64,000 bases of DNA from a virus (Duplodnaviria; Caudoviricetes), in IMG/VR virus record IMGVR_UViG_3300022220_000004, positions 770-64,769 of that record. One strand, written 5' to 3'. This document shows positions 48,702-64,000 of this stretch, piece by piece. The position numbers were made by a program, and so were the translations under genes. Numbering within the stretch: position 1 is the first letter of the stretch; each line of letters begins with the position of its first letter. The notes below the pieces were generated by a model that saw only the letters and a program-made list of their open reading frames with translations, made no database searches and was not told the DNA's origin.

Positions 48702-48730
48702 ATCCCCCTTCTGGCGATGTTGTTGCACGG

Positions 48731-48766
48731 GAAAAACGGCCCGTGGCGGGGATCGCCACAGGCCGC
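48731..48766 (-). terminator. intrinsic terminator
   Basis: CGGCCTGTGGCG...CGCCACGGGCCG-TTTTT on the minus strand. Confidence 0.65.
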
Positions 48767-48773
48767 TTGGTCG

Positions 48774-49432: not shown

Positions 49433-49459
49433 CCCCCTTTGATTCGATTTGTCCTACAT

Positions 49460-49493
49460 AGGAATAACGCCTGACAGCTTGTAAAACTGTCAG
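49460..49493 (-). repeat. cassette repeat copy 1
   Basis: + strand AGGAATAACGCCTGACAGCTTGTAAAACTGTCAG. Confidence 0.95.
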
Positions 49494-49535
49494 ACTCCTG
49501 GCGGGGTGACCGCAGCCGGCCACCCCGCCGATAGT

Positions 49536-51263
49536 TTACACATCCAGGATCTCTTCCTCATTGGTGGTGTCCCTGTCGGGAACCGCCGATGACGTTTCAG
49601 ATGCCCACCGTCGTGCGTCGGCACGCATCTGATCGATGGAAGAGGCAGTGCGAGCGCTCATCTTGACCCGGCGCTCGATCTCGTTGGCCAGGTCTGAGAA
49701 GGTCATGTCACGGCCTTCCCCCCAGGCGAACCGATGCGCAGCCTCTATACCTTGCTCGATGCCCCGAGGATTCAGGCTACCCTTCACCGTGGAGGCGGCG
49801 AGTTCCCGCATCTGGCTCATGTTGCCAGTGAGGATGTCGCCAAGGTCACGCTTGCCCAGGTGGATCTCAAAGACTGCCAGGGCCTCTGTTGCGTTCCTGG
49901 GCAGGTCTACGAACCACCTGTCTTCAAACCGATCCCGGAGAGGATCGGGCAGGCGTCCAGGGTGGTTGGTGGTCGCAGCCACGATCACCATGCTCTTGCG
50001 TTCCTGCATCCAGGATAGCAGCATCTGCTGTGTCTCGTTGCTGACCTCGTGCTGGCCCTCACTGTCCGATACCAGTAGGTCGATTTCGTCCAGCCAGAGC
50101 ACGCAGGTGTTGATCGCGTCCGCAGCGTCCAGGACACCACGGATGTTGGCCGCTGTCTCACCAAGCCATTTCGATTTCGATTCTGCCACTGACCAGCGCA
50201 GGATGGGCAGCAGTCCGCCACCGATGGTCTTGCACGCCAGTGACTTGCCAGTGCCGGCAGGTCCAGCAAACAAGATGGCCCGAGGCGGGCGCACCTTGGC
50301 GTCCAGCGCAGCCTGGCTCAGCAACTTGGGGTAGTGCCTGACAGCTGCCTTGAGAAGGTCCAGGCCGGCCACGTCGGTGATCGGTTCAGGCTCGATCAAC
50401 TCTATGCCCTGCTGCTTCTTCAAGATTGCAGCTTTCATGCTGGATACCAGCGGCCCGCACTTCTCTACCGACAGTTCCCTGGCTTCCACTATGGCCTGGC
50501 GGAGTACAAACCCCGCCTGTGTCCATGAGAGAGCCGCAAGGGCCTGCGCCAGGATCTCAGCGCCGCCGTTCTGGATCTCTTCACTGACCGGGATGCTCAC
50601 CCGTTCCGCCGTGGTCTGCACCATCCCGACCAGTTCCTGCACGTCGGGCAGTGGCCACTTGATAGTCACGATCTCTTTTTCGCTGTCACCAAGGGCGCTC
50701 AGATCCGGCGCCGTGATCACGGCGTAGCTCTTTGTTTTGAGCAGCCCATAGAACAGGTCCCGCACCGCCCTGATCGACAGTGCGTCACCCTTTGCGTCAC
50801 CACCACCACCAAGGAACCGGTGCAGATCGTGCATGATGAGTACACTGGCGTGGTCCACCATGGCCGGCCCTGTCTCATCTGCCTGTGCCCATGCTACAAA
50901 GTCCGCCACTGCCGCAAAGGGCTGGTTGGTTGCCTGCAGCGTTTCCAGATGGGCCTCTGCCTCTGAGTACCGGCGTTCAAGTTTCTCCGACAGCGGTGCA
51001 ACCATGCCCCCCTTGTCCAGGAACTTGGGGCGCAAGATCTCCAGCCCGCCGGTGAGAGTCCAGCGCCACACGATCCGCTCTGGCGCCGCCTCTTTGTTCG
51101 ACCCTGCGCCGCTCGCAAGGCTCATCATTGGACTTGCCGAGATTGCCCGGATGTACTTCAAGATCCGTGCCTCTTCCGTGGTTTCGATCCCGATGACCGG
51201 GATGCGTGCCCGGATTGCCGTGTCAAACTGCTGTAGTGCCTTTTCCGTTGCCGTCATCTTCAT
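49536..51263 (-). CDS. Ycf46-like AAA+ ATPase (degenerate N-terminal module plus active AAA module)
   Basis: IETTEEAR, DLHRFL, PLPD, GPAGTGKS, VLWLDEID, ATTN, DRFE..WFVDLP. Confidence 0.85.
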   Translation of the reverse strand: MKMTATEKALQQFDTAIRARIPVIGIETTEEARILKYIRAISASPMMSLASGAGSNKEAAPERIVWRWTLTGGLEILRPKFLDKGGMVAPLSEKLERRYSEAEAHLETLQATNQPFAAVADFVAWAQADETGPAMVDHASVLIMHDLHRFLGGGGDAKGDALSIRAVRDLFYGLLKTKSYAVITAPDLSALGDSEKEIVTIKWPLPDVQELVGMVQTTAERVSIPVSEEIQNGGAEILAQALAALSWTQAGFVLRQAIVEARELSVEKCGPLVSSMKAAILKKQQGIELIEPEPITDVAGLDLLKAAVRHYPKLLSQAALDAKVRPPRAILFAGPAGTGKSLACKTIGGGLLPILRWSVAESKSKWLGETAANIRGVLDAADAINTCVLWLDEIDLLVSDSEGQHEVSNETQQMLLSWMQERKSMVIVAATTNHPGRLPDPLRDRFEDRWFVDLPRNATEALAVFEIHLGKRDLGDILTGNMSQMRELAASTVKGSLNPRGIEQGIEAAHRFAWGEGRDMTFSDLANEIERRVKMSARTASSIDQMRADARRWASETSSAVPDRDTTNEEEILDV

Positions 51264-51297
51264 TTGCTTCCCCCTATGAGATTGGTTTTTGTTTCAC

Positions 51298-51336
51298 AGG
51301 AATAACGCCCGACAGCCTGTAAAACTGTCAGGCGTT
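51298..51336 (-). repeat. cassette repeat copy 2
   Basis: AGGAATAACGCCCGACAGCCTGTAAAACTGTCAGGCGTT. Confidence 0.95.
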
Positions 51337-51345
51337 TTTCCAAGT

Positions 51346-51804
51346 TCACAAGTCCACATCCCATGCCTCTGGCACTTCTGGCTCTGTGCTGGCGTAGACC
51401 GGATTGGCCAAGTCGTAGTAGTTCTGGCTGGTGACCACGGTCTGCAGGTCGGTGTCCGAGTAGCGGCCCGTGACTACATAGGTCGCAAGTGCCCCTTTCA
51501 TGTAGGAGAAGGCAACTGGCACATGATTGCCGTCGGGCACCTGCGACAGCAGTTCATGAAGTGCTGCCTGCAGGTGCGCCGGCGCCTTGTCCAGATCCTC
51601 TATCCGTAGGAACTTTGCCTCTGGCGTAGCCTCTGGCGTGTATACGACTATGCCAGGCCCGAGATCGCCCGACATGTCAGAGAAGAGGGTGAAGATAGAG
51701 TCAAACGCACGCCGCACGTTTGCAACCTCTCCGCTTGCATGCTCATGCCCAAGCGGGTGCGTGTTTCGCTTTGTCCTACTTGTTCCCTGGCTCATAGTCA
51801 TCAC
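51346..51804 (-). CDS. hypothetical protein
   Basis: abuts the upstream gene's stop; ends at repeat copy 2. Confidence 0.55.
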   Translation of the reverse strand: MMTMSQGTSRTKRNTHPLGHEHASGEVANVRRAFDSIFTLFSDMSGDLGPGIVVYTPEATPEAKFLRIEDLDKAPAHLQAALHELLSQVPDGNHVPVAFSYMKGALATYVVTGRYSDTDLQTVVTSQNYYDLANPVYASTEPEVPEAWDVDL

Positions 51805-53097
51805 CTATAGGTCCATCATGGAGAGTTCGTCCATCTCCAGGTTAGCTGCCACGGTAGCAGCGTCGGTCAGCGATGTTGCTACCGCACTGCGGATAGAGGA
51901 AAGCACGGCGTCCGTATCATACGACTTGCCGCTGCCCTCTGTCCTGCTTTCCACTGTAGCTGACAGCTTTTCCAGTTGCTTGGCCATCTCGCTGTCAGAA
52001 GTGATGTTCATGAGATTGAACCACTCCGCCAGGTTGCGGATGGCTGCTGCTTCCTTGCCGTGTACCCACCCACGCTTGGCGATGTTGCTCTGCAGCTTTG
52101 ACAGCGTGGCGTAGATCTTGTCACGGTTCTCTTTGACGATCTCCAGCAGGGGGTTGACAGTATCGGCAACCGCCTTGCGAGCGATCTCTACCTGTGCGGC
52201 CCGGATGGCCCGCATGGCCTCTTCCTCTTCAAACTGTACCACCCGCAACTGGGCGGCAACCTGTTCCTCAGTCAGGCGCTGTTCCTCTTTGGCCGCAGCG
52301 GCATCAGCCTCTGCCTTTTCCATCTGAGCTTTGCGATCCCGTGCCCACGTGTCCCGTTCCAACCGCTCTTTTTCCGCTTCGTCCCGGCGAGTTGCCGACA
52401 GGCGCTGTGCCCGTAGCATCTCTGCCTGGTACTCCGACTCCAGCAGGAAGGTTGCCGGCGGTTTCAGGGTCACGTTCAGTTCCGCCAGTATACGTGCCTT
52501 GGTCGGGAACCGTGCCAGTGCGTCCGCTACTACCGCATTCACAAAGGCGTCCAGTTCGTAGCTGCCTTGCAGGGCAGGAGTCCGGCCCCAGGTGTCCTTG
52601 GCGTGGTCCGTGAAGTCCGCCCGGCAGTCGAGCTTGATCTGGTCATAGTTGTCCAGGACCCATTTCTTGTACTGTTCCCACTCTTTGACTAGCGCCTGGT
52701 GCCGTTCGTGCCAGCGCATGAAGGCGCTGTACGGCACGTACCTGTAACCAGGGAAGATGCTGATCCCCTGGCTGTAGTCCAGTAGGTTCTGGCGAATCCG
52801 CTGTGCGATGCTCTGCAGCCTGGTGTTTGATAACAAATTCTTGCGCCCAGGCCGGATGCGCTTGGTGATCCGCCGGCTGTCGCCCTTGGTCACCCCGAGA
52901 TCCAGGTTCCAACTGATCCGTGCGTCGAACATTGTAAGCCCGGTGATGTCCAGGTCCAGCAACATGCCGGACTCTCGTAGTGCCTTGGCGTTGGCGTAGA
53001 AGACTTCCACATCGCCGTCAAAGCCCATCTCATACAGATTGCTCAGTGCCCGCTGCCTGACCTGTTCGTGGGTCAGTTCCATCAGATTGTCAGTCAT
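51805..53097 (-). CDS. DUF3150-like coiled-coil protein
   Basis: LLDLDITG...G.K.LL...PGYRYVP N-terminal pattern and long helical C-terminus; family call tentative. Confidence 0.55.
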   Translation of the reverse strand: MTDNLMELTHEQVRQRALSNLYEMGFDGDVEVFYANAKALRESGMLLDLDITGLTMFDARISWNLDLGVTKGDSRRITKRIRPGRKNLLSNTRLQSIAQRIRQNLLDYSQGISIFPGYRYVPYSAFMRWHERHQALVKEWEQYKKWVLDNYDQIKLDCRADFTDHAKDTWGRTPALQGSYELDAFVNAVVADALARFPTKARILAELNVTLKPPATFLLESEYQAEMLRAQRLSATRRDEAEKERLERDTWARDRKAQMEKAEADAAAAKEEQRLTEEQVAAQLRVVQFEEEEAMRAIRAAQVEIARKAVADTVNPLLEIVKENRDKIYATLSKLQSNIAKRGWVHGKEAAAIRNLAEWFNLMNITSDSEMAKQLEKLSATVESRTEGSGKSYDTDAVLSSIRSAVATSLTDAATVAANLEMDELSMMDL

Positions 53098-53171
53098 GCC
53101 GCTGTCCCCTTTCCGCTATCTCTAGCGCTCGCTATCCCTAGCGTTTGTGATTTAAGTCCAGTGTGTCTCAC

Positions 53172-53217
53172 AGGAATAACGCTTGGGCGGTTGTAAAACT
53201 GTCACAACCGCCCAAGG
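53172..53217 (-). repeat. cassette repeat copy 3 (variant with a rebuilt stem)
   Basis: AGGAATAACGCTTGGGCGGTTGTAAAACTGTCACAACCGCCCAAGG. Confidence 0.85.
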
Positions 53218-53234
53218 ATTTGGGGATCTTTTGA

Positions 53235-53771
53235 CTAGCCGGCCGCTTTGGCCAGCCCGATGAATGCCGCCAGGGCATCTGCCGTACCTGTCATCCACTC
53301 CAGCCATAGCTCTGTGCCGATCTCTTTGAAGTGTAGGGCATAATCCTCTGCGCCATCTGAGATCATGCCGCTGCCTACCATCTTGACCCGGATCTGGTTG
53401 GCCAGGTCCACGTGGGCCAGGGTCATCACACGAGTAGGTTCCAGCATGCGAGTAGAGGCATTGATCAGCTGGAGATATGCGGCGCCGGCGTACTCTGCAC
53501 GCCTCAGTCTGCAGATCCAGACGATTGCCCGATCTGCCATGATGGACAGCCCGCCGTTCATTGGCACCGGCCAGGCGTAGTATTGATAAAACTGACTGCC
53601 CCGGTGCCACTCCTGGTGGATGTCCAGCAGGGCGCAAGCGGCCAGGCACTCTGCCATCCACTCAGGCCCGCCCACACTGTCAAGGCGTTCGCCGGCCACG
53701 CCGCCTTCCTTCAAGAGCCAGGTGTGCTTGCACCCTGGCACCAGCGCCTTGGTTCTCAGGATCTTATTCAT
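53235..53771 (-). CDS. hypothetical protein
   Basis: coupled ORF. Confidence 0.55.
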   Translation of the reverse strand: MNKILRTKALVPGCKHTWLLKEGGVAGERLDSVGGPEWMAECLAACALLDIHQEWHRGSQFYQYYAWPVPMNGGLSIMADRAIVWICRLRRAEYAGAAYLQLINASTRMLEPTRVMTLAHVDLANQIRVKMVGSGMISDGAEDYALHFKEIGTELWLEWMTGTADALAAFIGLAKAAG

Positions 53772-54111
53772 CTTGTGGCGCCAAGTCCGGGTGCTTCTTG
53801 AGTACCCGGTGATAGTTCCTGGAAACAGTCTTGTAGTTCGGTACGCTCTTGTGTTCCCCGGCGATCACGTCCAGGATCTCTTCTACATCGCCGCGCCGGA
53901 TCATGTGGTCAAACCCGTAGAACTCTTGCCAGACCTCTGCCACGGTGCGGCCCACGTTTCCCCTGCAGCGCTTATCAGTCTCCAGGACAAACTTGACCTG
54001 TGCAAAGGTGGTAGAGATTGCAGGGCGCACATCATCTTCCCCGAACATGTCACCCTGTATCACGGTCATACGTCTATCAGTCACTACCCTTCCCCCTTTC
54101 TGCTTGGCCAC
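53764..54111 (-). CDS. hypothetical protein (start uncertain)
   Basis: coupled ORF. Confidence 0.5.
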   Translation of the reverse strand: MAKQKGGRVVTDRRMTVIQGDMFGEDDVRPAISTTFAQVKFVLETDKRCRGNVGRTVAEVWQEFYGFDHMIRRGDVEEILDVIAGEHKSVPNYKTVSRNYHRVLKKHPDLAPQDE

Positions 54112-54760
54112 ACAGCGGCGCCTCAGTCACGGTGCCGATGCCAGCCACGTTGACTTCTTCCAGCCAGCCGCCGGCCATGGTCACCTGCCCATCCAGGATG
54201 GTGAACAGGGCGGCGCTGTCCCAGTCTTCCAGGACTAGCTGGCCACTCTCCAGGCTTTCCTTCACCCGGATCACACGTTGGTTGCTAGAGCCAACGTACT
54301 GCCTCTTGTCGTCGTCCAGTTCTGCAATGTACGGCCCATCCACCAGGACATCGATCTGTTGCATGGCCAGACGTTCCGTGGCCGTCTTCCTGCCGGATGC
54401 TTGCAGTAACTCCCATGTGTACCCCGTGTAGACTATCACGTGGGCATCAGGATCGTGCGCCCGCAGGCTAGAGAGCATGAGTGCCAGCGCCAGCGGCTGA
54501 TCAAAAGGCTCGCCGCCGGTGACGGTGTACAGATGATTGCCCGCCGCACTGCTAAGCACGTTCACGATTCTAAGCATGTGCCCAAGCGCTACCACGTCCA
54601 GGCTGTTGCCGCCGGCCGGGTCCTGCAGGGCCTCGTTCTGGCATCCAGGGCACCTGTTGCGGCATCCCTGGAACCAGATTGTAGTTCGCACGCCGGGACC
54701 GTCCACCGTGGACGCATCTGCGATACGTGCGATGTTTCCGACTAAGTTGCCCATGTCCAA
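54077..54760 (-). CDS. radical SAM protein, NrdG/anaerobic RNR-activase-like
   Basis: DGPGVR..IWFQGC, CxxxCxxC (CRNRCPGC), TGGEPFDQ, YTGY, DVLVDGPY, GSSNQR. Confidence 0.88.
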   Translation of the reverse strand: MDMGNLVGNIARIADASTVDGPGVRTTIWFQGCRNRCPGCQNEALQDPAGGNSLDVVALGHMLRIVNVLSSAAGNHLYTVTGGEPFDQPLALALMLSSLRAHDPDAHVIVYTGYTWELLQASGRKTATERLAMQQIDVLVDGPYIAELDDDKRQYVGSSNQRVIRVKESLESGQLVLEDWDSAALFTILDGQVTMAGGWLEEVNVAGIGTVTEAPLCGQAERGKGSD

Positions 54761-54781
54761 TACCTCCCCTTCTCTGATTGT

Positions 54782-54825
54782 AGGAATAACGCCCGACAGC
54801 TTGTAAAACTGTCAGGCGTTATTCC
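54782..54825 (-). repeat. cassette repeat copy 4 (extended palindrome)
   Basis: GGAATAACGCCCGACAG-CTTGTAAAA-CTGTCAGGCGTTATTCC. Confidence 0.95.
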
Positions 54826-54828
54826 AAC

Positions 54829-56235
54829 TCAGTCCACGTTCTCCAGGTACTCATCGAGTGGCATGCGGTGCTGCAGCCCACCATCCAGGTTGGTCAGCTT
54901 GGTGGACACGACCTGGCCACTGTGCGCACGGAAGTGCAGTATACTCGTGCCGGTTGGCCCGTTCCGATGCTTGGCGGTGATCCACTCCATTTGCCCCTTG
55001 ACCTCCGTTGCCTCTGGCTCATACATCTCCTGCCGGAAGAGGAAGGCCACGACATCGGCGTCTTGCTCTAGTGCACCGGACTCTCGTAGATCCGACAGCA
55101 TAGGCCGCTTGTCCACCCTGGTTTCCACTCCACGGCTCAGCTGTGACAGCGCCAGCAGTGGCACGTTCAGCTGCCTGGCCAGCAGCTTTAGGCTACGGCT
55201 TATATCGTCCACCTGCTCGCGCCGATTCTTGCGATCATCGTCGGCCGTCATCAGCTGCAGGTAGTCGATGCACAGTAGGTCAAGGCCGTGTTCTGCCTGC
55301 TGCCTGTGGGCAATCGCCCGGATCTGTGATGGCTTGTACGCACCGGCATAGGCCACGCAGATGGGCAGCTGTTCGATCCTGCCCATGGCGTCTATCAGGC
55401 GCGGCCAGTCGTTGCCCTCCAGCTTTCCCTGTCGCAGCTTGTGGATTGACAGCCCGCTCTCGATGCAGGCTAGGCGCTGCGACAGCTGCAGCGCACTCAT
55501 CTCCAGGCTTATGATCAGGGTGTGCTTGCCCGCCTTGCCTGCAGCGAGCGCTATGTTCAGCATGGCGGCTGTCTTCCCAACTGCCGGCCGTGCGGCCAGG
55601 TAGATCACGTCAGAGTTGTGCATACCGCCCAGGATCTTGTCAACGTCCACCAGGCCAGTTGAGATGCCGGCCAGGCCCTGCCGCTTGCTGACTAGCTCTA
55701 CCTCTTCATACAGTTCGGACATCAGTTTGCTACTGTCCGCCAGGCCGTCATCACCCTTGCTGGTGGTCGCAGTGTAGAAATTTGTTTCCACCTTTGACAG
55801 CACGTCTTCCAGGTCCGTGGCTTCGTCGCATGCGTCTATGGCGATGCGTTCCGCCAGGTCCAGCAGGGTGCGGCGCCTAGCAGCTGCCGACACGATGTCA
55901 GCATAGTGCTGCAGGTGCACACTTGTCGGCGTGCGGTCCTGGAGTTCCATCAGATACCCTACGCCGGTGTGACCGTCGGCCGAGATCTTGTTCAGGTACC
56001 CCTTGCTTTCCAGGTAGTCTGATACGGTCAGTAGGTCGATGGCCGTCTGGCTCTGGTATAGCCTCAGGATGGCGGTGTAGATCCAGCGGTGACTCTCGCG
56101 CCAGAAGTCGTGCGGGTCCAGCCCAAGAGATACAGATCTGATCCCGTGAGGATCGATCATTAGGGCGCCCAGTACGGCTTGTTCCGCATCCAGGTTGACT
56201 GGTAGTCCCTTCCTTGGTTTAGGTTGGCCAGCCAT
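54829..56235 (-). CDS. dnaB: replicative DNA helicase
   Basis: AEQAVLGA, ARPAVGKT, SLEMS, IDYLQL, LSQLSR, DLRESGALEQDAD, KHRNGPTG. Confidence 0.95.
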   Translation of the reverse strand: MAGQPKPRKGLPVNLDAEQAVLGALMIDPHGIRSVSLGLDPHDFWRESHRWIYTAILRLYQSQTAIDLLTVSDYLESKGYLNKISADGHTGVGYLMELQDRTPTSVHLQHYADIVSAAARRRTLLDLAERIAIDACDEATDLEDVLSKVETNFYTATTSKGDDGLADSSKLMSELYEEVELVSKRQGLAGISTGLVDVDKILGGMHNSDVIYLAARPAVGKTAAMLNIALAAGKAGKHTLIISLEMSALQLSQRLACIESGLSIHKLRQGKLEGNDWPRLIDAMGRIEQLPICVAYAGAYKPSQIRAIAHRQQAEHGLDLLCIDYLQLMTADDDRKNRREQVDDISRSLKLLARQLNVPLLALSQLSRGVETRVDKRPMLSDLRESGALEQDADVVAFLFRQEMYEPEATEVKGQMEWITAKHRNGPTGTSILHFRAHSGQVVSTKLTNLDGGLQHRMPLDEYLENVD

Positions 56236-56803: not shown

Positions 56804-56804
56804 G

Positions 56805-58368: not shown

Positions 58369-58402
58369 TGCGATCCTTTCCGTGGTGGTGTGCCACAGGG
58401 GT

Positions 58403-58527
58403 AGAAAAGAGGGGACCTGTAGTCTGACCCGATGTACGGTTTCTGGCGGATCACCCGACACCGTGAAGGCATCGGGTCAGACTGCAAGTCCCCTCTATTG
58501 TACGCACTCTTGCTGTCAGGTGATCCA
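58403..58527 (-). promoter_or_regulatory. structured 5' leader / attenuator candidate
   Basis: 27-bp stem (58470-58496 with 58408-58434) followed by a U tract; alternative pairings possible. Confidence 0.6.
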
Positions 58528-58532
58528 CTGGA

Positions 58533-58562
58533 ATTATACCACAAAGGCGTCAAACGTGTCAA
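58533..58562 (-). promoter_or_regulatory. consensus sigma70 promoter of the replication operon
   Basis: TTGACA-N18-TATAAT with extended -10. Confidence 0.8.
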
Positions 58563-58585
58563 GTCCGTGATCGCTCGATCACAAC

Positions 58586-58625
58586 AGGAAAAAGGCGGGG
58601 TCGCCCCCGCCAGCCCCCTTTCCTG
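58586..58625 (-). terminator. intrinsic terminator
   Basis: GGCGGGG-GCGA-CCCCGCC-TTTTTCCT. Confidence 0.75.
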
Positions 58626-58630
58626 GTTTG

Positions 58631-59020
58631 CTATCCTGCCGCTGTGATGAAGGAGTCCGATCCGTCTTTGACATAACCGATGGATCGGAAGCCGTAATCT
58701 GCAACCTCGAACGCCTCACCGTCCGGTGAGACAATGACATCTCCGATGCTCATGCTGGTGTGGTTGATGCCACGGCGCCGCAGCAGCGGCCTGGCCTCAC
58801 CGTGTGGTGACCAGTTCATGCCCTGCATCTGGTTGTAGACCCACTGCAAGTTGGTGCAGTGCGCCCAGTCTTCACCCATCACGTCCCGCTTGTGGTTCTG
58901 GTGCGTGATGTACTCGTGCGTACCCCGCAGGTCTTCCGCTCTCAGGCCCAGGTCAGACATGAAAATGGGTTCCCGCCGGTACCAGATCTCGTACAGCCCG
59001 TACAGTATCCTGCCTGCCAT
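58631..59020 (-). CDS. YodL-like domain protein (start reassigned to MAGRIL)
   Basis: HTSMSIGDVIV.....F.V...GF motif; SD GGGGG. Confidence 0.65.
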   Translation of the reverse strand: MAGRILYGLYEIWYRREPIFMSDLGLRAEDLRGTHEYITHQNHKRDVMGEDWAHCTNLQWVYNQMQGMNWSPHGEARPLLRRRGINHTSMSIGDVIVSPDGEAFEVADYGFRSIGYVKDGSDSFITAAG

Positions 59021-59128
59021 TTGTCCTACCCCCTTTGATAGTCGTGAGCCAGGCCGGTGCCGACTTGCTAGGCACCAGCAGTGGCTCTTTGATTGTAGTA
59101 GCCGCTCACTTGAAGTGTAGCGCCTCAA

Positions 59129-59166
59129 AGGAATAACGCCTGACAGTCTGTAAAACTGTCAGGCGT
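59129..59166 (-). repeat. cassette repeat copy 5
   Basis: AGGAATAACGCCTGACAGTCTGTAAAACTGTCAGGCGT. Confidence 0.95.
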
Positions 59167-59169
59167 CGT

Positions 59170-59604
59170 CTAGTATTGCCGTCGTCCATTCCACAGCTGC
59201 CTTTCCCCTGGCGCCGGTTCCTTCATGGTGAAGCGGGTGACCGGCCGGTCATTGCTTATCGGCGCGAACACGGGGTGCCCTACGCTTTGCGCCGTGTTCA
59301 GGGTCAGTGTCGTGTCCAGGAGTGTCTTGCGCCAGATCCCAGGTGCCCACTGTGTGTCACCGGGATTCCATACCATGGTGAAGAGGTCGCCAGGTGCCAG
59401 GTCCCCAAAAGTTATGGCGGGCACGGTGAAGATCTCTACGTCCACCAGCTGCCCCACGCCGGCCCAGTCATTGGTGCCGACCTTTCGTGCATTGGACACG
59501 ATCCCAGGTTCCTCTGCCTTTTCCCAAACGCCGTCAAGGCGCCCGCCGGGAACGGTGAACAGTTCCCCATTCTCCAGATCCTTGAACTGCCAAAGTGAAG
59601 CCAT
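59170..59604 (-). CDS. cassette gene with an internally duplicated small domain
   Basis: FKDLENGELFT...GVWEK...NA and FGDLAPGDLFT...GIWRK...NTA. Confidence 0.65.
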   Translation of the reverse strand: MASLWQFKDLENGELFTVPGGRLDGVWEKAEEPGIVSNARKVGTNDWAGVGQLVDVEIFTVPAITFGDLAPGDLFTMVWNPGDTQWAPGIWRKTLLDTTLTLNTAQSVGHPVFAPISNDRPVTRFTMKEPAPGERQLWNGRRQY

Positions 59605-59637
59605 GTTGCATCCCCCTCTCAGCGATTTGTCCTACAT

Positions 59638-59672
59638 AGGAATAACGCCTGACAGCGTGTAAAACTGTCAGG
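59638..59672 (-). repeat. cassette repeat copy 6
   Basis: AGGAATAACGCCTGACAGCGTGTAAAACTGTCAGG. Confidence 0.95.
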
Positions 59673-59758
59673 TGCATTCCCTCTCAGTTGTGTTGCCAGC
59701 TACGTAACCCGCATGCGGTAAGCCTACAGCTGGCGGCTTATATCTGCGTGGCCAGTTA

Positions 59759-60145
59759 TCAGATCAGCTGTGAGAAGTCCAGCGCCGGTGTGGTGTGGAT
59801 GCGCAACGTCGTTAGATGCCCGTGCGTTTCCACGTCAGGCACACTGTGCACGGTGCAGTCACTGCCGCACATCATGCACGCTAGCCCGCCAGTCTCAGTG
59901 CCGGTCACGTCCTTTGCCTTCATCTGCCAGCGGATGCCGCCGGCGATGCCGTGCAGGTCGCCTTCCTCACTGCGCGAGATCTTGGGTTCCACCCCTGCTT
60001 CTCTGTGGACTTCCAGCACCCTTTCTGACTCTTGGTGCAGGGCAACCACGCAGTAGGTGCACAGGTAACCCCGTGCTAGGAAACTAAAGATCCTGCATTC
60101 CGACCCGATGGGTGTCCAGGGCAGATTTTTGAAGTTCACGCCCAT
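59759..60145 (-). CDS. cassette gene, Zn-binding hypothetical protein (start MGVNFK)
   Basis: CTYC and CMMC; starts 15 nt after repeat copy 7. Confidence 0.55.
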   Translation of the reverse strand: MGVNFKNLPWTPIGSECRIFSFLARGYLCTYCVVALHQESERVLEVHREAGVEPKISRSEEGDLHGIAGGIRWQMKAKDVTGTETGGLACMMCGSDCTVHSVPDVETHGHLTTLRIHTTPALDFSQLI

Positions 60146-60159
60146 GGTTTGTCCCTCAC

Positions 60160-60198
60160 AGGAATAACGCCCGACAGCTTGTAAAACTGTCAGGCGTT
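60160..60198 (-). repeat. cassette repeat copy 7
   Basis: AGGAATAACGCCCGACAGCTTGTAAAACTGTCAGGCGTT. Confidence 0.95.
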
Positions 60199-60455
60199 TC
60201 CTTGGCCTCACATCCCACTCCGCCACCCGGCCCGCCTGAAACTGCATCGAGTGGCAGTTCTCAGGGCTTCCCAAAGTCTGCGGGTTATAGTGACCCGACC
60301 CAGGTCACCAGGGCTAGCATTAGCACATGATTGCACCCCCTCAGTGTGTCGTTCTACAGGAAAAAGGCCCGGTGACGCCCGCCCCACAGCGAGCGCCACC
60401 GGGTTGAGAGGGTTAGCACATAGGAAAAACGGGCCAGCACTTGGCCGGCCCGTTC

Positions 60456-60857
60456 CTAGTTCTTGCTCTTCTCCACTATCGTGCGGATCGACCTGTCAAT
60501 CTCTCCGTGGATGTCGGAGTACGTGCCGTTCCGCCACATGCTGTCAACCAGGACCCCGCGATCCACGTCCCACGAGAAGGCAAAGCGCTCCGCGATCTTG
60601 CCAAGTGCTTCTGCCCACTCTATGGCCAGCTTGCGTGTCCTCAGGTATGGCGTGCGATCCACGGCGTAGCCTGACTGAATGTGCGATACCGTCCAGCCGT
60701 TCGCGTTCACCGTGGGATCATCCAGCCGTGCGACCCTTGATACAGCCAGACCGGCAGGGATGTCGCCGCCGATGTAGCCCGGCCAGTCATCCGCCCGCTT
60801 GGTGCCGTCCAGCCAGTGTGTCATCTTGCTGAATGTAATCCGTTTCAGTTTGCCCAT
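60456..60857 (-). CDS. cassette gene, hypothetical (start MGKLKR)
   Basis: SD GAGGGGG; WTVSHIQSG motif. Confidence 0.6.
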   Translation of the reverse strand: MGKLKRITFSKMTHWLDGTKRADDWPGYIGGDIPAGLAVSRVARLDDPTVNANGWTVSHIQSGYAVDRTPYLRTRKLAIEWAEALGKIAERFAFSWDVDRGVLVDSMWRNGTYSDIHGEIDRSIRTIVEKSKN

Positions 60858-60887
60858 CGTGCACCCCCTCAGTGTATTGTCCCTCAT

Positions 60888-60926
60888 AGGAATAACGCCC
60901 GACAGCTTGTAAAACTGTCAGGCGTT
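60888..60926 (-). repeat. cassette repeat copy 8
   Basis: same as copy 7. Confidence 0.95.
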
Positions 60927-60930
60927 CCGG

Positions 60931-61284
60931 TTACCAGTTCATTGGCTCGATCAAGATGTCGTCCGGCATGATGTCGATGTCCGGCAGTGGTTGCCAGGCG
61001 TAGCCGCCGCCTGTCTCGTAGTGTGAGGATGGCAGGTCCAGCATGTAGCCAGGACCGTCAGGGATCTCCACGACCAGCCAGGCGTGGTCATCACCGTCGT
61101 GGCCACCGTCCCGGAAGTCGAACCCGTGTTCTGCCAGCACTCCGCCGAAGGCCATTGCGATGGCGTCACATGCGCCGCCGGTGTCCCAGTCGTGATCGTC
61201 CAGCGCCTCTTGTGCAGCGCCCGCCAGCAGGGTGTTCAGGTTCAGCAGCTGCACAACCTTGTCCAGCCTATCAGTTCCGCTCAT
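60931..61284 (-). CDS. cassette gene, possible transglutaminase/papain-like fold
   Basis: GACDAIA...HAWLV...YMLD (Cys-His-Asp order). Confidence 0.55.
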   Translation of the reverse strand: MSGTDRLDKVVQLLNLNTLLAGAAQEALDDHDWDTGGACDAIAMAFGGVLAEHGFDFRDGGHDGDDHAWLVVEIPDGPGYMLDLPSSHYETGGGYAWQPLPDIDIMPDDILIEPMNW

Positions 61285-61315
61285 ACTTGCACCCCCTCAG
61301 TGATTTGTCCTACAT

Positions 61316-61354
61316 AGGAAAAACGCCCGACAGTCTGTAAAACTGTCAGGCGTT
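61316..61354 (-). repeat. cassette repeat copy 9
   Basis: AGGAAAAACGCCCGACAGTCTGTAAAACTGTCAGGCGTT. Confidence 0.95.
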
Positions 61355-61363
61355 CACTGAGGT

Positions 61364-61543
61364 CTATGTTGCCCGTACCCGTGGAGACTTGGCGCCGCCA
61401 GTGTAGATGTACCACACTCTCCAGCCAGCACCAAAGAGGGCAGTGTACTCTGTGACTTTTCCTCTTGCCTTTTCGTCGGTGTCCGCCCAGTCTATGGGAA
61501 TGTACTCATCATCCCCACACCTGGCGCGGATTTCATATTTCAT
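61364..61543 (-). CDS. cassette gene, small hypothetical protein (start MKYEIR)
   Basis: SD GGGGG; ID.ADT...A.....EY...FG..W pattern. Confidence 0.55.
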   Translation of the reverse strand: MKYEIRARCGDDEYIPIDWADTDEKARGKVTEYTALFGAGWRVWYIYTGGAKSPRVRAT

Positions 61544-61723
61544 AGCCCGAGTCCCCCATTCCTTAGAGTTTTTGAGCAAAGGCCAACCCGCCTATGCGGC
61601 GCAGGTGTGACTGCCGCCCCGATACCCCCGCCACAGGCTGTGACTTGTCCCGCCAGCCAAGACCTGCCAGCTGTCCGAGTCCGCCATCAGTTGCCCCTGT
61701 GGTTCCGGGCCATTTGCCCTCAT

Positions 61724-61762
61724 AGGAATAACGCCTGACAGCGTGTAAAACTGTCAGGCGTT
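61724..61762 (-). repeat. cassette repeat copy 10
   Basis: AGGAATAACGCCTGACAGCGTGTAAAACTGTCAGGCGTT. Confidence 0.95.
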
Positions 61763-61769
61763 CTGTTTC

Positions 61770-62312
61770 CTAGAAAGGCTGTTCTTTGGTGCTGTCCAGA
61801 TTGGCCTGGTCCCATCCTGCCAGCCAGTTGGTAAAGATGGCCTCGTGGTAGGGCGGGTCATTGGTTTTGAGCATGTATTGCACATTCTCGTCCATGTAGG
61901 GCGCTCGCATCTTGCCCTCTTGGAACGCCGCCCGACCGGTGACCTTGGCCAGCTCTATGACCGCTTCCATGGCGTTCTCTACGTACTTTTGGCCAAGCAG
62001 AAGCTCGATGTACTCAGCGCTGTCCACGGCCCGATCTGCCAGCCTGGTCATGTAGTCGCGCACGTTCTGTAGCTCCACGACGGACAGGTCTACCGTCCGC
62101 TGCGAGATGTCCAGCGCCGGCCCGGTGAGGATTTCCAGCGCACGGCTCTCCGTGATCGTGACTGCCTGGAAGAACTCAAGGTGTGCCTGGCACTCGCCGC
62201 AGTAGCTTTCCGCCTCTTCCGGCGCGTGCTCATTGCAGTAGGCGCCGCCGCCGTAGTATGTGGCCTTGTCCGGTGACAATGCCTTGGTGCACACGTCACA
62301 GTAGACGCTCAT
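61770..62312 (-). CDS. cassette gene, Zn-finger hypothetical protein
   Basis: CDVC..YCNEH..CGEC; C-terminal WLAGWD. Confidence 0.65.
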   Translation of the reverse strand: MSVYCDVCTKALSPDKATYYGGGAYCNEHAPEEAESYCGECQAHLEFFQAVTITESRALEILTGPALDISQRTVDLSVVELQNVRDYMTRLADRAVDSAEYIELLLGQKYVENAMEAVIELAKVTGRAAFQEGKMRAPYMDENVQYMLKTNDPPYHEAIFTNWLAGWDQANLDSTKEQPF

Positions 62313-62345
62313 GATTGTACCCCCTCTCAGTGATTTGTCCTACAT

Positions 62346-62384
62346 AGGAATAACGCCTGACAGCGTGTAAAACTGTCAGGCGTT
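62346..62384 (-). repeat. cassette repeat copy 11
   Basis: same as copy 10. Confidence 0.95.
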
Positions 62385-62389
62385 CCGTT

Positions 62390-62830
62390 TCACTCTTGCA
62401 GAGACAAGGCAGCTGCACCCATTGCGGGCACGCCCGCCATGATCTTTTCCTTGGCGATGTCCAGTGTGCGCAGCCAGGCAGTTTTCACAGCTTCCATTGC
62501 CGGGCACCAGTCCGCAGTGCAGTCATCAGCGCCGCCATCAGGGCAGCGATCCTCACAGGCGCCATCCTCAAAGAGGGTCATGACGCTGACCATGATCCGC
62601 TGTGCCGTGGCTGCTTCCTGCTGCTTGATGGTTTCGCGTACCCGGCCGACCTCAGTTGCCCACACCTTGCCGTTGCTGTCTTTCACCAAGACCCGCCGCT
62701 CGCCGCCCAGGCCATCGCTCAGCATGCACCAGCCCAGGACCTTGATCAGCCTGCCGTCGTATCCCTGGATGCCAGGGTGTCGCCCCTGGTAGATCTTGCC
62801 TGCCAGGTCGCACTTGTCTTTGTCGCTCAT
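62390..62830 (-). CDS. cassette gene, hypothetical
   Basis: bounded by repeats 11 and 12; SD with a G9 run. Confidence 0.6.
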   Translation of the reverse strand: MSDKDKCDLAGKIYQGRHPGIQGYDGRLIKVLGWCMLSDGLGGERRVLVKDSNGKVWATEVGRVRETIKQQEAATAQRIMVSVMTLFEDGACEDRCPDGGADDCTADWCPAMEAVKTAWLRTLDIAKEKIMAGVPAMGAAALSLQE

Positions 62831-62864
62831 CGTGCACCCCCCCCCTCAGTGATTTGTCCTACAT

Positions 62865-62903
62865 AGGAATAACGCCTGACAGTGTGTAAAACTGTCAGGC
62901 GTT
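62865..62903 (-). repeat. cassette repeat copy 12
   Basis: AGGAATAACGCCTGACAGTGTGTAAAACTGTCAGGCGTT. Confidence 0.95.
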
Positions 62904-62908
62904 CTGTT

Positions 62909-63628
62909 CTACTTTTCCTCATCGGTCAGCAGTGACCCGATCCGCAAGCTGGAGTGTGTGGAGTAGAAGGTGTACGAGTGGGGGTACTTCCTGCTGCCCC
63001 GTGCCCACTTGATCGACCTGAATGCGCTGGCGCTAGGCATGTCCAGCCAGGCGCGATCAGACTTGACGATACTGCGATCATACTGGTTCACGCCGCCCCA
63101 CTCGATCTGGTAATGCAGCCAGTCAGGCGCTGTTCCCAGGTGTGAGTACTCAGGGATCTCCGACTCGTACACAACGGCCGTGCACCTGACCTGTACATCG
63201 TCACTCAGCTGCGCAAACCAGACGATCTTGACCTCTTTGCGCATGCTGCCAGCGTAGCCAGCCTTGATAAGGAAGGGCGCGATCTCTTGCGCCGTGCCGC
63301 CATACTTGGCGATCTGTGCATCTGCGTTTGTCTCAGGGCAGAACACCTTGAAGCTGCCGCCCTGCACGGTGACCATGGAGATGGGCGCATAGGCGTCCAT
63401 CAGTTCCTCTACTCCAGCCAGCCCGACGGTAGCGAACTCGATGCCACCAATTGAACCGTACAGAAGAGGCTTGTGTGTGAAGATGTACCGCACTCTGTCA
63501 GCGCAGGCGTCAGGCATGACATCCAGGATTTGCTGCTTGCGATCCAGTTCCGCCATCTTTTCCGCCGTGATCTTGGCCTGCTTTTCCAGAAGGTCCGCCC
63601 TCAGTTCCTCTACAGTGTTGCCTTTCAT
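62909..63628 (-). CDS. cassette gene, hypothetical
   Basis: bounded by repeats 12 and 13. Confidence 0.65.
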   Translation of the reverse strand: MKGNTVEELRADLLEKQAKITAEKMAELDRKQQILDVMPDACADRVRYIFTHKPLLYGSIGGIEFATVGLAGVEELMDAYAPISMVTVQGGSFKVFCPETNADAQIAKYGGTAQEIAPFLIKAGYAGSMRKEVKIVWFAQLSDDVQVRCTAVVYESEIPEYSHLGTAPDWLHYQIEWGGVNQYDRSIVKSDRAWLDMPSASAFRSIKWARGSRKYPHSYTFYSTHSSLRIGSLLTDEEK

Positions 63629-63658
63629 CGTGCACCCCCTCAGTGATTTGTCCTACAT

Positions 63659-63697
63659 AGGAATAACGCCCGACAGCTTGTAAAACTGTCAGGCGTT
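63659..63697 (-). repeat. cassette repeat copy 13
   Basis: same as copy 7. Confidence 0.95.
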
Positions 63698-63703
63698 CTG
63701 TGT

Positions 63704-63967
63704 TCACTCTTGAAAGAGCAGTGTTTTTGCCCCCTCTACCATGAAGGGCACCAGGTGGGTGCCGGGCGCATCTCCGAGCTTGGCCATACGTGCGTAAAAC
63801 TTCTCTCCGGCGTCCGTGTCGCCCTCTTCAAAGGTGACCGCGCCAGCAAAGATGTCATACTCCAGCCCACTGCCAGCGGTTTGGTAGTGCTCGCCCAGTT
63901 CCTCGCCCTCATCATCCACTACCTGGAACTCGAACGTCACCCAGGCTTTCATCTTGATCTTTGCCAT
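63704..63967 (-). CDS. cassette gene, acidic hypothetical protein
   Basis: bounded by repeat 13 and the truncated copy 14. Confidence 0.6.
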   Translation of the reverse strand: MAKIKMKAWVTFEFQVVDDEGEELGEHYQTAGSGLEYDIFAGAVTFEEGDTDAGEKFYARMAKLGDAPGTHLVPFMVEGAKTLLFQE

Positions 63968-63976
63968 TGTACCGTA

Positions 63977-64000
63977 CCCCCCCCTCAGTGATTTGTCCTA
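63977..64000 (-). repeat. cassette repeat copy 14 (leader only, truncated by the window end)
   Basis: CCCCTCAGTGATTTGTCCTA, identical to the leader of copies 9, 12 and 13. Confidence 0.85.

Follow-up and report, generated by a model that had tools for sequence, protein, structure and literature searches.

A 13-nt box, a hairpin and a translation leader recur between the early genes of an uncultured sediment siphophage

An uncultured sediment siphophage of about 70 kb (58% G+C) carries a palindromic repeat at many of its gene junctions, which raises the question of what such a unit does for the genes on either side. We analyzed a 64,000-nt stretch of this phage (the window), together with the only relative found (G001; about 65-72% nucleotide identity). 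A sequence-only reading had described single-gene cassettes delimited by a fused terminator, promoter and ribosome-binding module that also supplies homology for shuffling.

Extent and anatomy of the array

Searching for the 33-nt palindrome with three or fewer mismatches gave 11 matches in the window, all on the minus strand, against 0.00 expected from 100 shuffles, and further searches added a copy at 49466 and a variant at 53155-53204. In all, the window contains 12 strict copies, a variant (53170-53216) and a copy truncated where the contig, and with it the window, ends. As observed, copies start at 49460, 51298, 53155/53172, 54782, 59129, 59638, 60160, 60888, 61316, 61724, 62346, 62865 and 63659, exactly where the array had been placed, with 0 expected; the array is thus real. 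All window copies lie on the coding (−) strand between genes (chance expectation 0) and are co-oriented with the genes. At most 9 nt lie between the upstream stop and the hairpin in 17 of the 22 array intervals; the earlier description of a terminator-like hairpin just past each stop is supported. From 59 kb onward, each interval held one ORF. None of these ORFs matched a Pfam or PHROG family or had a paralogue at E≤1e-3, in agreement with the description of one unrelated small ORF per unit. The cut copy was confirmed as well: its leader part occupies 63977-64000 (−), and the complete unit is found at 5021-5100 of L029, a 5.2-kb metagenome contig that extends the array upstream with eight extra copies plus the missing piece. 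Together, this phage (G000) and L029 contain 21 standard copies.

In a standard unit, the left arm and loop of the hairpin form a 13-nt box, TGACAGTTTTACA, and a tail and a leader follow. The canonical leader spans about 35 nt, with the Shine-Dalgarno sequence GAGGGGG, 5-8 nt and the ATG, and in the intervals that carry it the hairpin ends 36-43 nt before the ATG; the leader sequence ..TAGGACAAATCACTGAGGGGG.. was seen eight times in the window. This standard leader bears out the earlier view that a ribosome-binding site belongs to the module.

All window units lie on the minus strand. The unit at 63657-63697 has its hairpin at 63665-63697, its box at 63679-63691, the tail TATTCCTATG and a canonical leader up to the ATG at 63628. 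Canonical leaders were also found with the units at 62863-62903 (box 62885-62897, ATG 62830), 62344-62384 (box 62366-62378, ATG 62312), 61313-61355 (box 61336-61348, ATG 61284), which is the sole family copy with a TTTTTCCT tail, and 59636-59676 (box 59658-59670, ATG 59604), where the stem is shortened to 9 bp. Other leaders occur at 61722-61762 (box 61744-61756), with a non-canonical long leader of 186 nt and then a 59-aa ORF; at 60886-60926 (box 60908-60920, ATG 60857), with the variant leader ATGAGGGACAATACACTGAGGGGG; at 60158-60198 (box 60180-60192), with a short leader to the ATG at 60145 of a gene whose G001 homologue is 62% identical; and at the array's last unit, 59127-59167 (box 59149-59161), with a non-canonical leader of 114 nt. 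A GC hairpin plus TTTTTCCTGT at 58586-58611 (−), a canonical-looking terminator, closes the cassette array. Further standard units were located at the DnaB/NrdG-like gene junction (54778-54822, box 54802-54814), where the palindrome is extended to GGAATAACGCC../..GGCGTTATTCC, and upstream (51296-51336, box 51318-51330) and downstream (49458-49497, box 49480-49492, degenerate stem base) of the AAA-ATPase gene. The variant unit at 53170-53216 has a different stem of 12-15 bp (53182-53216), with the intact box (53192-53204) in its loop and the tail CGTTATTCCTGTG.

Hairpin structure and box identity

Stem pairing was observed in 97.2% of 494 cells compared with 82.4% in shuffles (0 of 500 reached the observed value), and it fell to 26-46% when the partner was slid. 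Five of the 13 stem pairs had changed on both sides. With some 97% of cells paired, these two-sided changes indicated that the hairpin is selected as a structure. Fold energies ranged from -25 to -34 kcal/mol (z -2.4 to -5.3). The A/G arm variant noticed earlier is real: among 38 distinct rows, pair 11-31 is U-A 25 times and U-G 13 times. Internal G·U pairs are wobble pairs on the coding strand only; the asymmetry of wobble versus A·C among independent substitutions, about 7 to 2, is not decisive. The U tract is weak, and a simple terminator scan was passed by only 3 of 12 strict copies plus the variant.

The tail directly 3′ of the stem was invariant across all hairpin types in both phages. 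Two unrelated GC hairpins within 60360-60456 (60426-60456 and 60368-60403, −) are each followed by TTTTTCCT(A/G)T, and the second then by the canonical leader, which shows that neither the tail nor the leader depends on the family hairpin. The same grammar was observed, with no box, at the gene junction 48726-48768 (−), where an unrelated GC hairpin precedes TTTTTCCCGTG.

A rival reading is that the element acts at the RNA level only. The hairpin would then be a processing or stability signal, with a host RNase or a phage hairpin-specific endoribonuclease cutting at the conserved UAUUCCU and so leaving monocistronic mRNAs whose 3′ ends are protected and whose 5′ leaders are uniform, and box identity would reflect only the concerted evolution of repeats. 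T7 RNase III sites are an analogue, as are Cas6/Csy4, which cut at the 3′ base of a hairpin. The strong covariation, the wobble pairs of the coding strand, the invariance of the tail and the strict co-orientation of units with the mRNA all agree with such an element, whereas stems of 10-13 bp are short for RNase III and the behavior of the box argues against it.

The box was invariant in 24 of 24 copies in G000 and L029, while the right arm and flanks varied among units, and an exact search returned 14 matches against 0.01 expected. The 24 occurrences consist of the 21 standard units, the variant hairpin, one head site and one intragenic copy, all co-oriented with local transcription. The head site is a promoter-like site that precedes the first early gene; a hairpin-less box stands at its -35 position. 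The intragenic copy (38153-38165, +) is a solitary exact box in the tail gene 37074-40154, co-oriented with the gene, and has neither hairpin nor CGTT tail. Where the arms differ, at L029 74-86 (head), 53192-53204 (variant) and 38153-38165 (intragenic), identity ends at sharp 13-nt edges. Exact boxes outside the family hairpin, namely at head sites upstream of the likely transcript start, in variant loops and in the intragenic copy, together with these edges, fit selection on DNA sequence and not gene conversion or RNA folding. A role at the RNA level only is therefore quite improbable. Almost all boxes lie in the early arm.

G001 has its own, different 13-mer, TGTCACAGATCCA, exact in 21 of 21 copies at equivalent places. 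These are two tandem head sites, 17 units, the site orthologous to the variant 53170-53216, built in the same way around G001's own box, and one junction orthologous to window 54788 (unit 54778-54822), where the G001 box is present and the hairpin absent. About 30 units were counted in G001, with the same tail (CGT-TATTCCT-NTG) and leader and different hairpins. G001 also has a second box type (four copies), and some equivalent junctions hold hairpins without any box; thus, the box is not needed at every junction.

High copy number, a palindromic core and nearly identical copies could also mark a selfish miniature repeat (REP- or MITE-like) spread through intergenic gaps with no phage role. 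However, 45 of 45 boxed copies in the two phages point in the direction of transcription, their placement between stop and start is fixed, and sites at orthologous junctions persist in G001, a relative of 65-72% identity, with the sequence replaced with compensation. Family scans also showed no transposase or RAYT-like gene. Such an origin is barely plausible.

Promoter register and sigma factors

The earlier reading took every unit as an active promoter plus terminator, a true PeSL, so that each gene would be its own transcription unit. The box would then be a -35 or activator element and CGTTAT-TCCTNT an unusual -10, which the RNA polymerase of the host would read with either a phage factor or an alternative host sigma. 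The registration of box and CGTT held: units match the head site in the box, the 16-nt spacing, CGTT.T and 14-15 of the next 22 nt. Furthermore, the G000 box contains TTTACA, 5/6 of a -35, and the hairpin-less G001 copy at one orthologous junction resembles the head site, with TACTGC. In PeSLs, too, the stem-loop is mostly described between -35 and -10 (PMC2839356).

The -10 register, in contrast, did not bear the idea out. The three head sites read box-N10-CGTTCT-TA...T, with TACAGT, TACAAT and TATTAT, and all three carry TA...T there, unlike the units, which read box-N10-CGTTAT-TCCTNT; TCCTAT, TCCTGT or TCCTTT, with no A at position 2, was found in essentially all units of both phages. A sigma-70 scan marked the L029 head site (TTTACA-16-TACAGT) and flagged no unit as such, its single match within a unit (62341-62314) using the leader and start region of one copy. 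Judged by sequence, the units are not sigma-70 promoters, their -10 register reading TCCTNT. The G001 box matches 2/6 of a -35, and the G001 head sites fail the scan there (GATCCA), so they are called promoters from position and -10 hexamers alone. The intragenic box has no -10 at all, and the clear promoters of this phage are consensus TTGACA/TATAAT. It is therefore unlikely that every unit is an active promoter. An example of a normal promoter for this phage is TTGACA-18-(TG)TATAAT at 58533-58562 (−), a 12/12 consensus sigma-70 match that would restart transcription into the replication genes.

An ECF-sigma promoter had been proposed specifically. The TGACAG-N17-CGTT spacing had been read correctly, and that of TGACAG/TGTCAC-N17-CGTT is ECF-like. 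Nevertheless, the proposed -35 box is not conserved in G001, the AAC motif is absent, and six-frame searches of both phages at E≤1 returned neither Sigma70_r2 nor Sigma70_r4_2. Since no sigma gene was found in either phage, the ECF reading is unsupported. Pfam, PHROG and NCBIfam scans of 28+52+36+47 ORF entries returned no repressor; the sole lead to a regulator is a weak winged-helix likeness in a 227-aa ORF adjoining the recombinase gene.

Cassette turnover, related systems and a composite reading

Compared with G001, gene content and order between repeats were not invariant. Of the 18 array genes, 10 have a G001 homologue (25-62% amino acid identity), and gene order is locally swapped in three places; the replication and lysogeny genes farther downstream are collinear, at 54-72%. 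These results support the proposed role of the repeats as homology for shuffling.

Integron attC sites had been named as an analogue, and cassettes could be captured or excised at such hairpins by the phage's tyrosine recombinase, encoded at 46112-47059. The array does consist of co-oriented, promoter-less single-ORFan cassettes, each followed by a hairpin repeat that is uniform within a genome and different between genomes, as in chromosomal integrons. The analogy fails on sequence, structure and recombinase type, however. The flanks depart from RYYYAAC/GTTRRRY, and the perfect stems have no extrahelical bases. The core-site consensus, an integron-type integrase and an attI/Pc layout are likewise missing. 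With 135 bits to XerC versus 33 bits to the integron-integrase model (cut-off 265), the recombinase is Xer-like; its gene is 12 kb away from the array and has the same orientation, and orthologous sites between conserved replication genes carry units as well. Capture by attC-like sites is accordingly very improbable. It is solely the Xer-like recombinase that suggests a temperate lifestyle; a search for a prophage relative found none.

The closest known systems are PeSLs, SAS/ESAS and stoperators. PeSLs of T4-type myoviruses have a stop/stem-loop/SD layout and mediate shuffling (Arbiol et al. 2010, PMC2839356). As far as the cited accounts go, they resemble our units as 50-100-nt cassettes from the stop of one ORFan to the next SD/ATG, in a variable early region, with G-T pairs in a stem-loop overlapping the promoter-like part and with cassette-bounded indels and swaps between relatives (PMC2839356; Comeau et al. 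2014, PMC4122927). The analogy thus holds for layout and shuffling and not for the sigma-70 boxes: PeSLs have consensus -35/-10 elements with experimentally shown promoter activity (PMC2839356, PMC4122927), whereas our units lack the key A in the -10 register, none passes the scan, and the element at the -35 position is a phage-specific 13-nt box that differs between relatives. Host and phage type are also unrelated, ours being a siphovirus of 58% G+C.

Cluster A stoperators are described as asymmetric, syn-oriented 13-14-bp sites that number 20-30 per genome, lie in part in the early promoter and differ by subcluster (Mavrich and Hatfull 2019, PMC6550527). Those of L5 and Bxb1 (PMC6550527, PMC9283540) compare with the box as a 13-nt asymmetric site that recurs exactly about 20-25 times per genome in the direction of transcription, mostly within short intergenic gaps; at least one copy lies in the early lytic promoter close to the genome end, and related phages differ in the consensus. 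The genome layout is similar as well (rightward structural arm, leftward early arm from the end, central recombinase), and the first early gene here matches Pfam GP88. In contrast, the scans gave no repressor here; the sequences are unrelated; our sites lie almost exclusively in the early arm, which those of L5 do not; and a position within an RNA-type hairpin with conserved tail and leader is not among the features that PMC6550527 describes.

The SAS/ESAS of Cluster K, whose function is still untested (Pope et al. 2011, PMC3203893; PMC12699233), combine a conserved SD-containing motif, which lies in a single orientation a few nt upstream of the ATG in non-structural genes, with an inverted repeat often found upstream (4-13-nt spacer), its left repeat better conserved than the right and its consensus differing between subclusters. 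Their authors report little support for RNA pairing, whereas compensatory changes strongly support it here; the motif sequences differ, and the left arm here also occurs at the promoter-like head site. New here is an invariant box that is reused without a hairpin at that site.

Of the sequence-only reading, then, the hairpin, the SD leader, one gene per unit and the shuffling homology stand, the ECF part is unsupported, the attC analogy fails, and the promoter part was half right. The explanation that we favor, tentatively and at somewhat short of an even chance, is that the repeat is a composite punctuation cassette of a leftward early operon, combining regulator box, hairpin, ribosome-binding site and recombination homology. 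A transcription regulator peculiar to the phage would recognize the phage-specific box, which would work as an operator at the head promoter and, at gene junctions, as a stoperator-like site. Over it lies a coding-strand hairpin of 10-13 bp, starting 2-9 nt past the upstream stop and followed by UUAUUCCU, in which the flank and the 5′ half of the box pair with the complementary right arm; in the mRNA, it may be a leaky terminator or attenuator and a 3′-end stabilizer, insulating neighboring genes. With its strong Shine-Dalgarno sequence, the leader of about 35 nt would ensure that imported genes are all translated uniformly. More than 20 junctions share about 75 nt of near-identical sequence, so that the units may also serve as homology for ordinary recombination, by which single genes would be added, removed and reordered.

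Repeat units and relatives of the phage

The record of phage G000 is a single virus record of 64,769 bp, of which bases 770-64769 form the window, and the G+C content of the window is 58-60%. According to PHROG and Pfam scans, a siphovirus-type structural module occupies the plus strand at 11.8-43.6 kb and encodes terminase, portal, major head protein, tape measure and endolysins. The minus-strand block encodes a Dam methylase, an AAA ATPase, an NrdG-like radical-SAM protein and an O-like replication initiator; DnaB (54829-56235) and an Xer-like tyrosine recombinase (46112-47059) also lie on the minus strand. The small ORFs of this block from 59 kb to the contig end matched no family.

Relatives were scarce. 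Megablast with a 24 kb query found no DNA-level relative among 50,697 phage records, and the exact hairpin pattern had 0 matches in viral_contigs. A tail-plus-SD pattern returned only the relative G001 in viral_contigs and only contig L029 in metagenome_contigs. G001, a 70,268-bp IMG/VR record found via the capsid protein (81% capsid identity), is collinear with G000 at ~65-72% nucleotide identity and was the only match in a profile search with the AAA ATPase; DnaB returned distant phage matches only (≤41%), which were uninformative. L029 (5,209 bp) matches the final 143 bases of the G000 record at 99.3% identity and reaches 5 kb further upstream. Thus, the comparison is based on two genomes and one fragment. 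The other capsid matches were a 5-kb fragment (L002) and one contig of an Anaerolineae MAG (55% identity), which is a weak hint that the host may belong to Chloroflexota/Anaerolineae. That contig contained no units and no repeat family, the tail motif was not enriched in the MAG, and among 401 sampled genomes of its phylum single background-level matches occurred in 21 and multiple copies in none.

Since the beginning of L029 is similar to the left end of the G000 contig, these ends probably adjoin, which would probably put the complete G000 genome at ~69-70 kb, similar to G001. A non-coding stretch of ~700 nt precedes the early operon (L029 1-240; G000 contig bases 1-570, for the most part outside the window on its left; about 10100-10268 on L006) and contains low-complexity runs of CCAGCC, ACGCAC and GGCGCCGGTCGCATCGGGCGCC repeats. 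The first gene of that operon (L029 239-982, +) matched Pfam GP88 (E 6e-38), and its product is 63% identical to that of the first early gene of G001. In the structural module, a 490-aa ORF (18473-19945, +) comprises ~14-18 tandem 69-nt (23-aa) repeats of families D1, D3, D6 and D7; a similar repetitive gene in G001 gave multiple cross-matches with it. Adjoining the recombinase gene, a 316-aa ORF (45099-46049, −) matched PHROG 6247 'DNA topoisomerase' (E 3e-91), and it showed no Pfam or NCBIfam family and no G001 homologue by blastp.

The ~75-nt unit between early genes consists of a 13-nt box, a hairpin, a tail and an SD leader. Scanning the window for its 33-nt palindrome with up to three mismatches returned 11 matches, all on the minus strand, where 0 were expected, and a looser scan together with a repeat finder brought in one more copy (49466) and a variant (53155-53204). 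The 13 copies and one truncated copy listed by the sequence-only reading were reproduced at the same positions. The copy at 63977-64000 is cut by the contig end; L029 completes it and gives eight further copies, and the standard family numbers 21 copies in the window and L029. In 17 of the 22 array intervals the hairpin starts within 9 nt of the upstream stop, and 36-43 nt separate it from the ATG in units with the canonical leader (..TAGGACAAATCACTGAGGGGG, then N5-8, then ATG). A cassette runs from the upstream stop as far as the SD and ATG of the next gene, within a variable, ORFan-rich early region, and no paralogues were found among the ORFs between units.

Other junctions bear unrelated hairpins (60426-60456, 60368-60403, 58594-58611, 48734-48768 and several in G001), which carry TTTTTCCT where the family units have TTATTCCT, some of them with the same leader. 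Because these hairpins carry a like tail, and some of them the leader, the junction grammar can be written as 'hairpin + T(A/T)TTCCT + leader', in which the family hairpin is just one filler of the first slot. Several other identities for the unit were considered and rejected. For a sigma-54 site, the GG/GC spacing is one position out and the GG is missing from G000; an N4-type hairpin promoter would call for a giant virion RNA polymerase, which was not among the ORFs; an RNase III site was dismissed by the stem-length criterion for such sites, the stem being too short; and an upstream ORF within the leader, whether start-stop or in-frame, was inconsistent across copies. No Rfam family reached the gathering threshold in the window, L029 or L006.

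Hairpin families of the two phages

In G001, ~30 hairpin units occupy the corresponding strand and arm. Both the tail, (C)GT-TATTCCT-NTG, and the leader, ..CA.CACTGAGGGGGTGCA..ATG, match those of G000, whereas the hairpins differ. Type A (17 standard copies and a variant) reads ACGCC-TGTCACAG-ATCCA-CTGTGGCA-GGCGT, and type B (4 copies) reads ACGGC-TGGCAGTG-ATACA-CGCTGCCA-GCCGT; there are also two copies of a type C and several unique GC hairpins. Type B is nearer to the G000 type than to type A of the same phage. Three type-B units stand consecutively in the G001 array (L006 3131-4038; G001 63138-64028), and this arrangement and the likeness to the G000 type together suggest a multi-cassette block imported from a phage with another box type.

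The G000 type, type A and type B align without gaps as a 13-bp stem and a 5-nt loop. On 38 distinct rows, 97.2% of the cells were paired compared to 82.4% in shuffles (0 of 500 reached the observed value), and the proportion fell to 26-46% when the partner was slid. Five of the 13 stem pairs were changed on both sides. The high pairing and the two-sided changes indicate that the hairpin is selected as a structure. As for the strand, U.G pairs were observed on the coding strand at pair 11-31 in 13 of 38 rows and at pair 13-29 in 12 of 38; these internal non-Watson-Crick pairs would be A.C mismatches on the opposite strand. Independent substitutions numbered ~7 wobbles against two A.C. The sequence-only suggestion that the hairpin seems to matter on the coding strand was borne out for the wobbles themselves, and a bias of only ~7 to 2 is indicative of that strand rather than proof.

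The hairpin is followed by UUAUUCCU, an interrupted U tract, whereas non-family hairpins at operon ends have UUUUUCCU. The U tract is weak, and only 3 of 12 strict copies passed a terminator scan; the hairpin structure itself is supported.

The 13-nt box and the promoter-like head sites

Within the G000 family, the left arm and loop, TGACAGTTTTACA, are invariant, and variation is seen in the right arm (A/G), at the stem base and at the two positions that follow the box. The box sequence differs by phage, being TGACAGTTTTACA in G000 as compared to TGTCACAGATCCA and also TGGCAGTGATACA in G001. The window contains 14 exact boxes, while only 0.01 matches with at most one mismatch would be expected. 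In total, G000 and L029 contain 24 boxes, and those of G001 number 21 (type A) and 4 (type B); each of the 49 is oriented with local transcription. Of the 24, 23 belong to the early arm and one to the structural arm, and the left minus-strand block has none.

The exact G000 box also occurs where the family hairpin is impossible. In the variant unit at 53170..53216 (−), it lies at 53192-53204 (−) in the loop of a different 12-15-bp stem, and the orthologous site of G001 is built alike around its own 13-mer, TGTCACAGATCCA. At the head site, upstream of the first early gene, it occupies L029 74-86 in the order box-N10-CGTTCT-TACAGT, which a promoter scan lists as TTTACA-16-TACAGT. At the G001 head, that phage's own box stands twice in tandem, at the same distance from CGTTCT-TACAAT and CGTTCT-TATTAT; these head sites fail the −35 criterion of the scan, and in both phages the box takes the −35 position. 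At the G001 junction orthologous to window 54788, a box without a hairpin precedes CGTTAT-TACTGC. A solitary box at 38153-38165 (+) lies inside and co-oriented with a 1026-aa tail gene (37074-40154), with no other part of the unit, and no exact counterpart exists in the structural arm of G001. Identity ends sharply at the 13-nt edges in the head, variant and intragenic copies, as expected from selection on a recognition sequence, unlike gene conversion between repeats. Since the head-site box precedes the likely start of the transcript, it would have to act at the DNA level. The sharing of the G000 box with a promoter-like head site, together with compensated hairpin families, is particular to this system.

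These head sites bear on the claim that each cassette is a terminator, promoter and RBS module. The hairpin and the SD leader are present, but consensus −35/−10 elements were not detected inside the units. If every unit were nonetheless a promoter, it may be of a factor-dependent or host alternative-sigma form, and the units do share their register with the head sites, agreeing in the box, the 16-nt spacing, CGTT.T and, over the following 22 nt, 14-15 positions. In the −10 register itself, however, all three head sites read TA...T, whereas essentially all units of both phages read TCCTAT, TCCTGT or TCCTTT and so lack an A at position 2, which sigma-70-type polymerases need. Moreover, in neither the window, L029 nor the G001 array did the sigma-70 scan flag any unit as such, sigma-70-family domains were not detectable in any frame of either phage, and no RNA polymerase was found among the ORFs scanned. 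We therefore regard a promoter in every unit as unlikely. The narrower proposal of an ECF-sigma promoter was not supported, since the −35 box is not kept in G001, the AAC motif is absent, and neither Sigma70_r2 nor r4_2 was found in six frames of G000 and G001; among the ECF-like elements only CGTT and its spacing are conserved, and an ECF sigma supplied by the host is still conceivable.

A consensus promoter (58562-58533; 12/12) is situated just past the hairpin plus TTTTTCCT that closes the array. Directly downstream of it, a hairpin of ~100 nt within 58395-58535 (−) folds at −68.5 kcal/mol (z −7.3), ends in UCUUUUCU and precedes the first replication-module ORF. G001 keeps its paired segments at the same place (GGAC.TGCAGTCTG.CCCG ... 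CATCGGGTCAGACT), and it had no Rfam match. It may function as a leader attenuator or as a small RNA.

Profile scans of the ORFs returned no repressor family. A 227-aa ORF (47035-47718, −) overlaps the start of the recombinase gene; its G001 counterpart has just 87 aa. In the Atlas model, its C-terminal part (residues 145-221) is like small viral winged-helix proteins (TM by row 0.65-0.67), and its feature match to an HTH_39 cluster was 0.80, which is a lead only. On this predicted fold it is a weak candidate for a DNA-binding protein and the sole regulator lead; for a 202-aa ORF, Atlas gave nothing usable.

Cassette turnover, known systems and a proposed mechanism

Both arrays were cut at the units and their ORFs were compared, the L029 plus G000 set comprising 18 array ORFs of at least 59 aa. 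Homologues in the G001 array were found for ten of the 18, at 25-62% identity, but not for the other eight, and local order was swapped three times (A0/A1/A3 versus B4/B0/B3; A10/A11 versus B16/B12; A16/A19 versus B19/B18). The downstream genes from replication to recombinase are strictly collinear between the two phages (54-72%). Gene order between units is thus not invariant, and the proposed gain, loss and shuffling of genes bounded by units were observed between these relatives. None of the 13 runs listed as containing the phage is an RNA run, and the contigs of four DNA runs break at every repeat. At four listed joints, the sides are just 24-30 nt and repeat-internal, and the loose ends correspond to further copies within this phage.

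Among known systems, the units resemble the PeSL elements in the stop-to-ATG layout, the ORFan-rich variable early region, the cassette-bounded replacements and the evolutionary role. As far as PMC2839356 treats them, PeSL stem-loops lie between or over promoter boxes and their consensus promoters are proven; units here are without consensus sigma-70 −35/−10 elements and show TCCTNT in the −10 register. The SAS/ESAS of Cluster K are similar in that an inverted repeat accompanies an SD-containing start motif, the left arm is better kept and the repeats are clade-specific, as given in the parts of PMC3203893 dealing with them. This likeness is an analogy only, with no sequence relation to the G000 units: the 13-bp Cluster K motif GGGATAGGAGCCC, 3-7 bp before the start, is absent, and the leader ..CACTGAGGGGG-N5-8-ATG takes an analogous position. 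The authors of PMC3203893 found little or no support for RNA pairing, and SAS/ESAS function is still untested according to the statement in PMC12699233. Hence, these two analogues suggested from the sequence held for layout, shuffling and the inverted repeat with SD motif, but not for the consensus promoter or the SAS sequence. The third, integron attC, did not fit. The flanks read ..GAACGCC / GGCGTTATTC rather than RYYYAAC ... GTTRRRY, the stems are perfect with no extrahelical bases, and an integron integrase beside the array is missing along with the core sites; the recombinase scored 33 bits against the integron-integrase model (cut-off 265) and 135 bits against XerC.

The box itself is most similar to the stoperators of Cluster A, which the relevant part of PMC6550527 describes as 13-14-bp asymmetric sites, 20-30 per genome and oriented with transcription. 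The likeness to that description (PMC6550527) covers length, asymmetry, number, orientation and clade-specific sequence, and the box at the promoter-like head sites may correspond to the sites in the early promoter. The Cluster A sites differ in being genome-wide and on both arms and in having a known repressor, and hairpins are not described for them in that account (PMC6550527).

We propose a cassette of three layers. In the first, the box would bind a putative phage-specific regulator and would double as an operator at the head promoter. In the second, the coding-strand hairpin plus UUAUUCCU would serve as a leaky terminator or a 3′ stabiliser; an interrupted U tract, as compared to UUUUUCCU at operon ends, points to leakiness, as does the position of the hairpin close behind the stop codon, within the ribosome's reach. 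The third layer would be the standard leader with its SD, and recombination between near-identical units would shuffle the genes. We consider the whole package possible, at slightly below an even chance. The regulator layer is its boldest step, drawn by analogy from stoperator-like statistics and box sharing. That the box is the operator of a putative phage-specific repressor, acting on the early promoter and also, at almost all junctions between early genes, as a roadblock, is a doubtful proposal that we put forward tentatively.

Phage early regions accumulate unknown host-takeover and anti-defence genes, and the gain, loss and control of early genes are poorly understood beyond T4-like phages and mycobacteriophages. 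Here, a single compact unit joins features of PeSL, SAS/ESAS and stoperators in a quite different phage, and the same grammar with different boxes and compensated hairpins in two relatives provides a clean natural experiment. To our knowledge, stoperator-type immunity has so far been described only for Cluster A actinobacteriophages; if the proposal is true, it would extend to an unrelated uncultured sediment phage, and one 75-nt unit would carry silencing, transcript punctuation, translation start and the homology for cassette exchange. If the box is a regulator site, it would give a sequence handle for the regulator and for immunity groups of uncultured phages, and if the units are portable expression cassettes, they would mark the exact borders of exchangeable genes.
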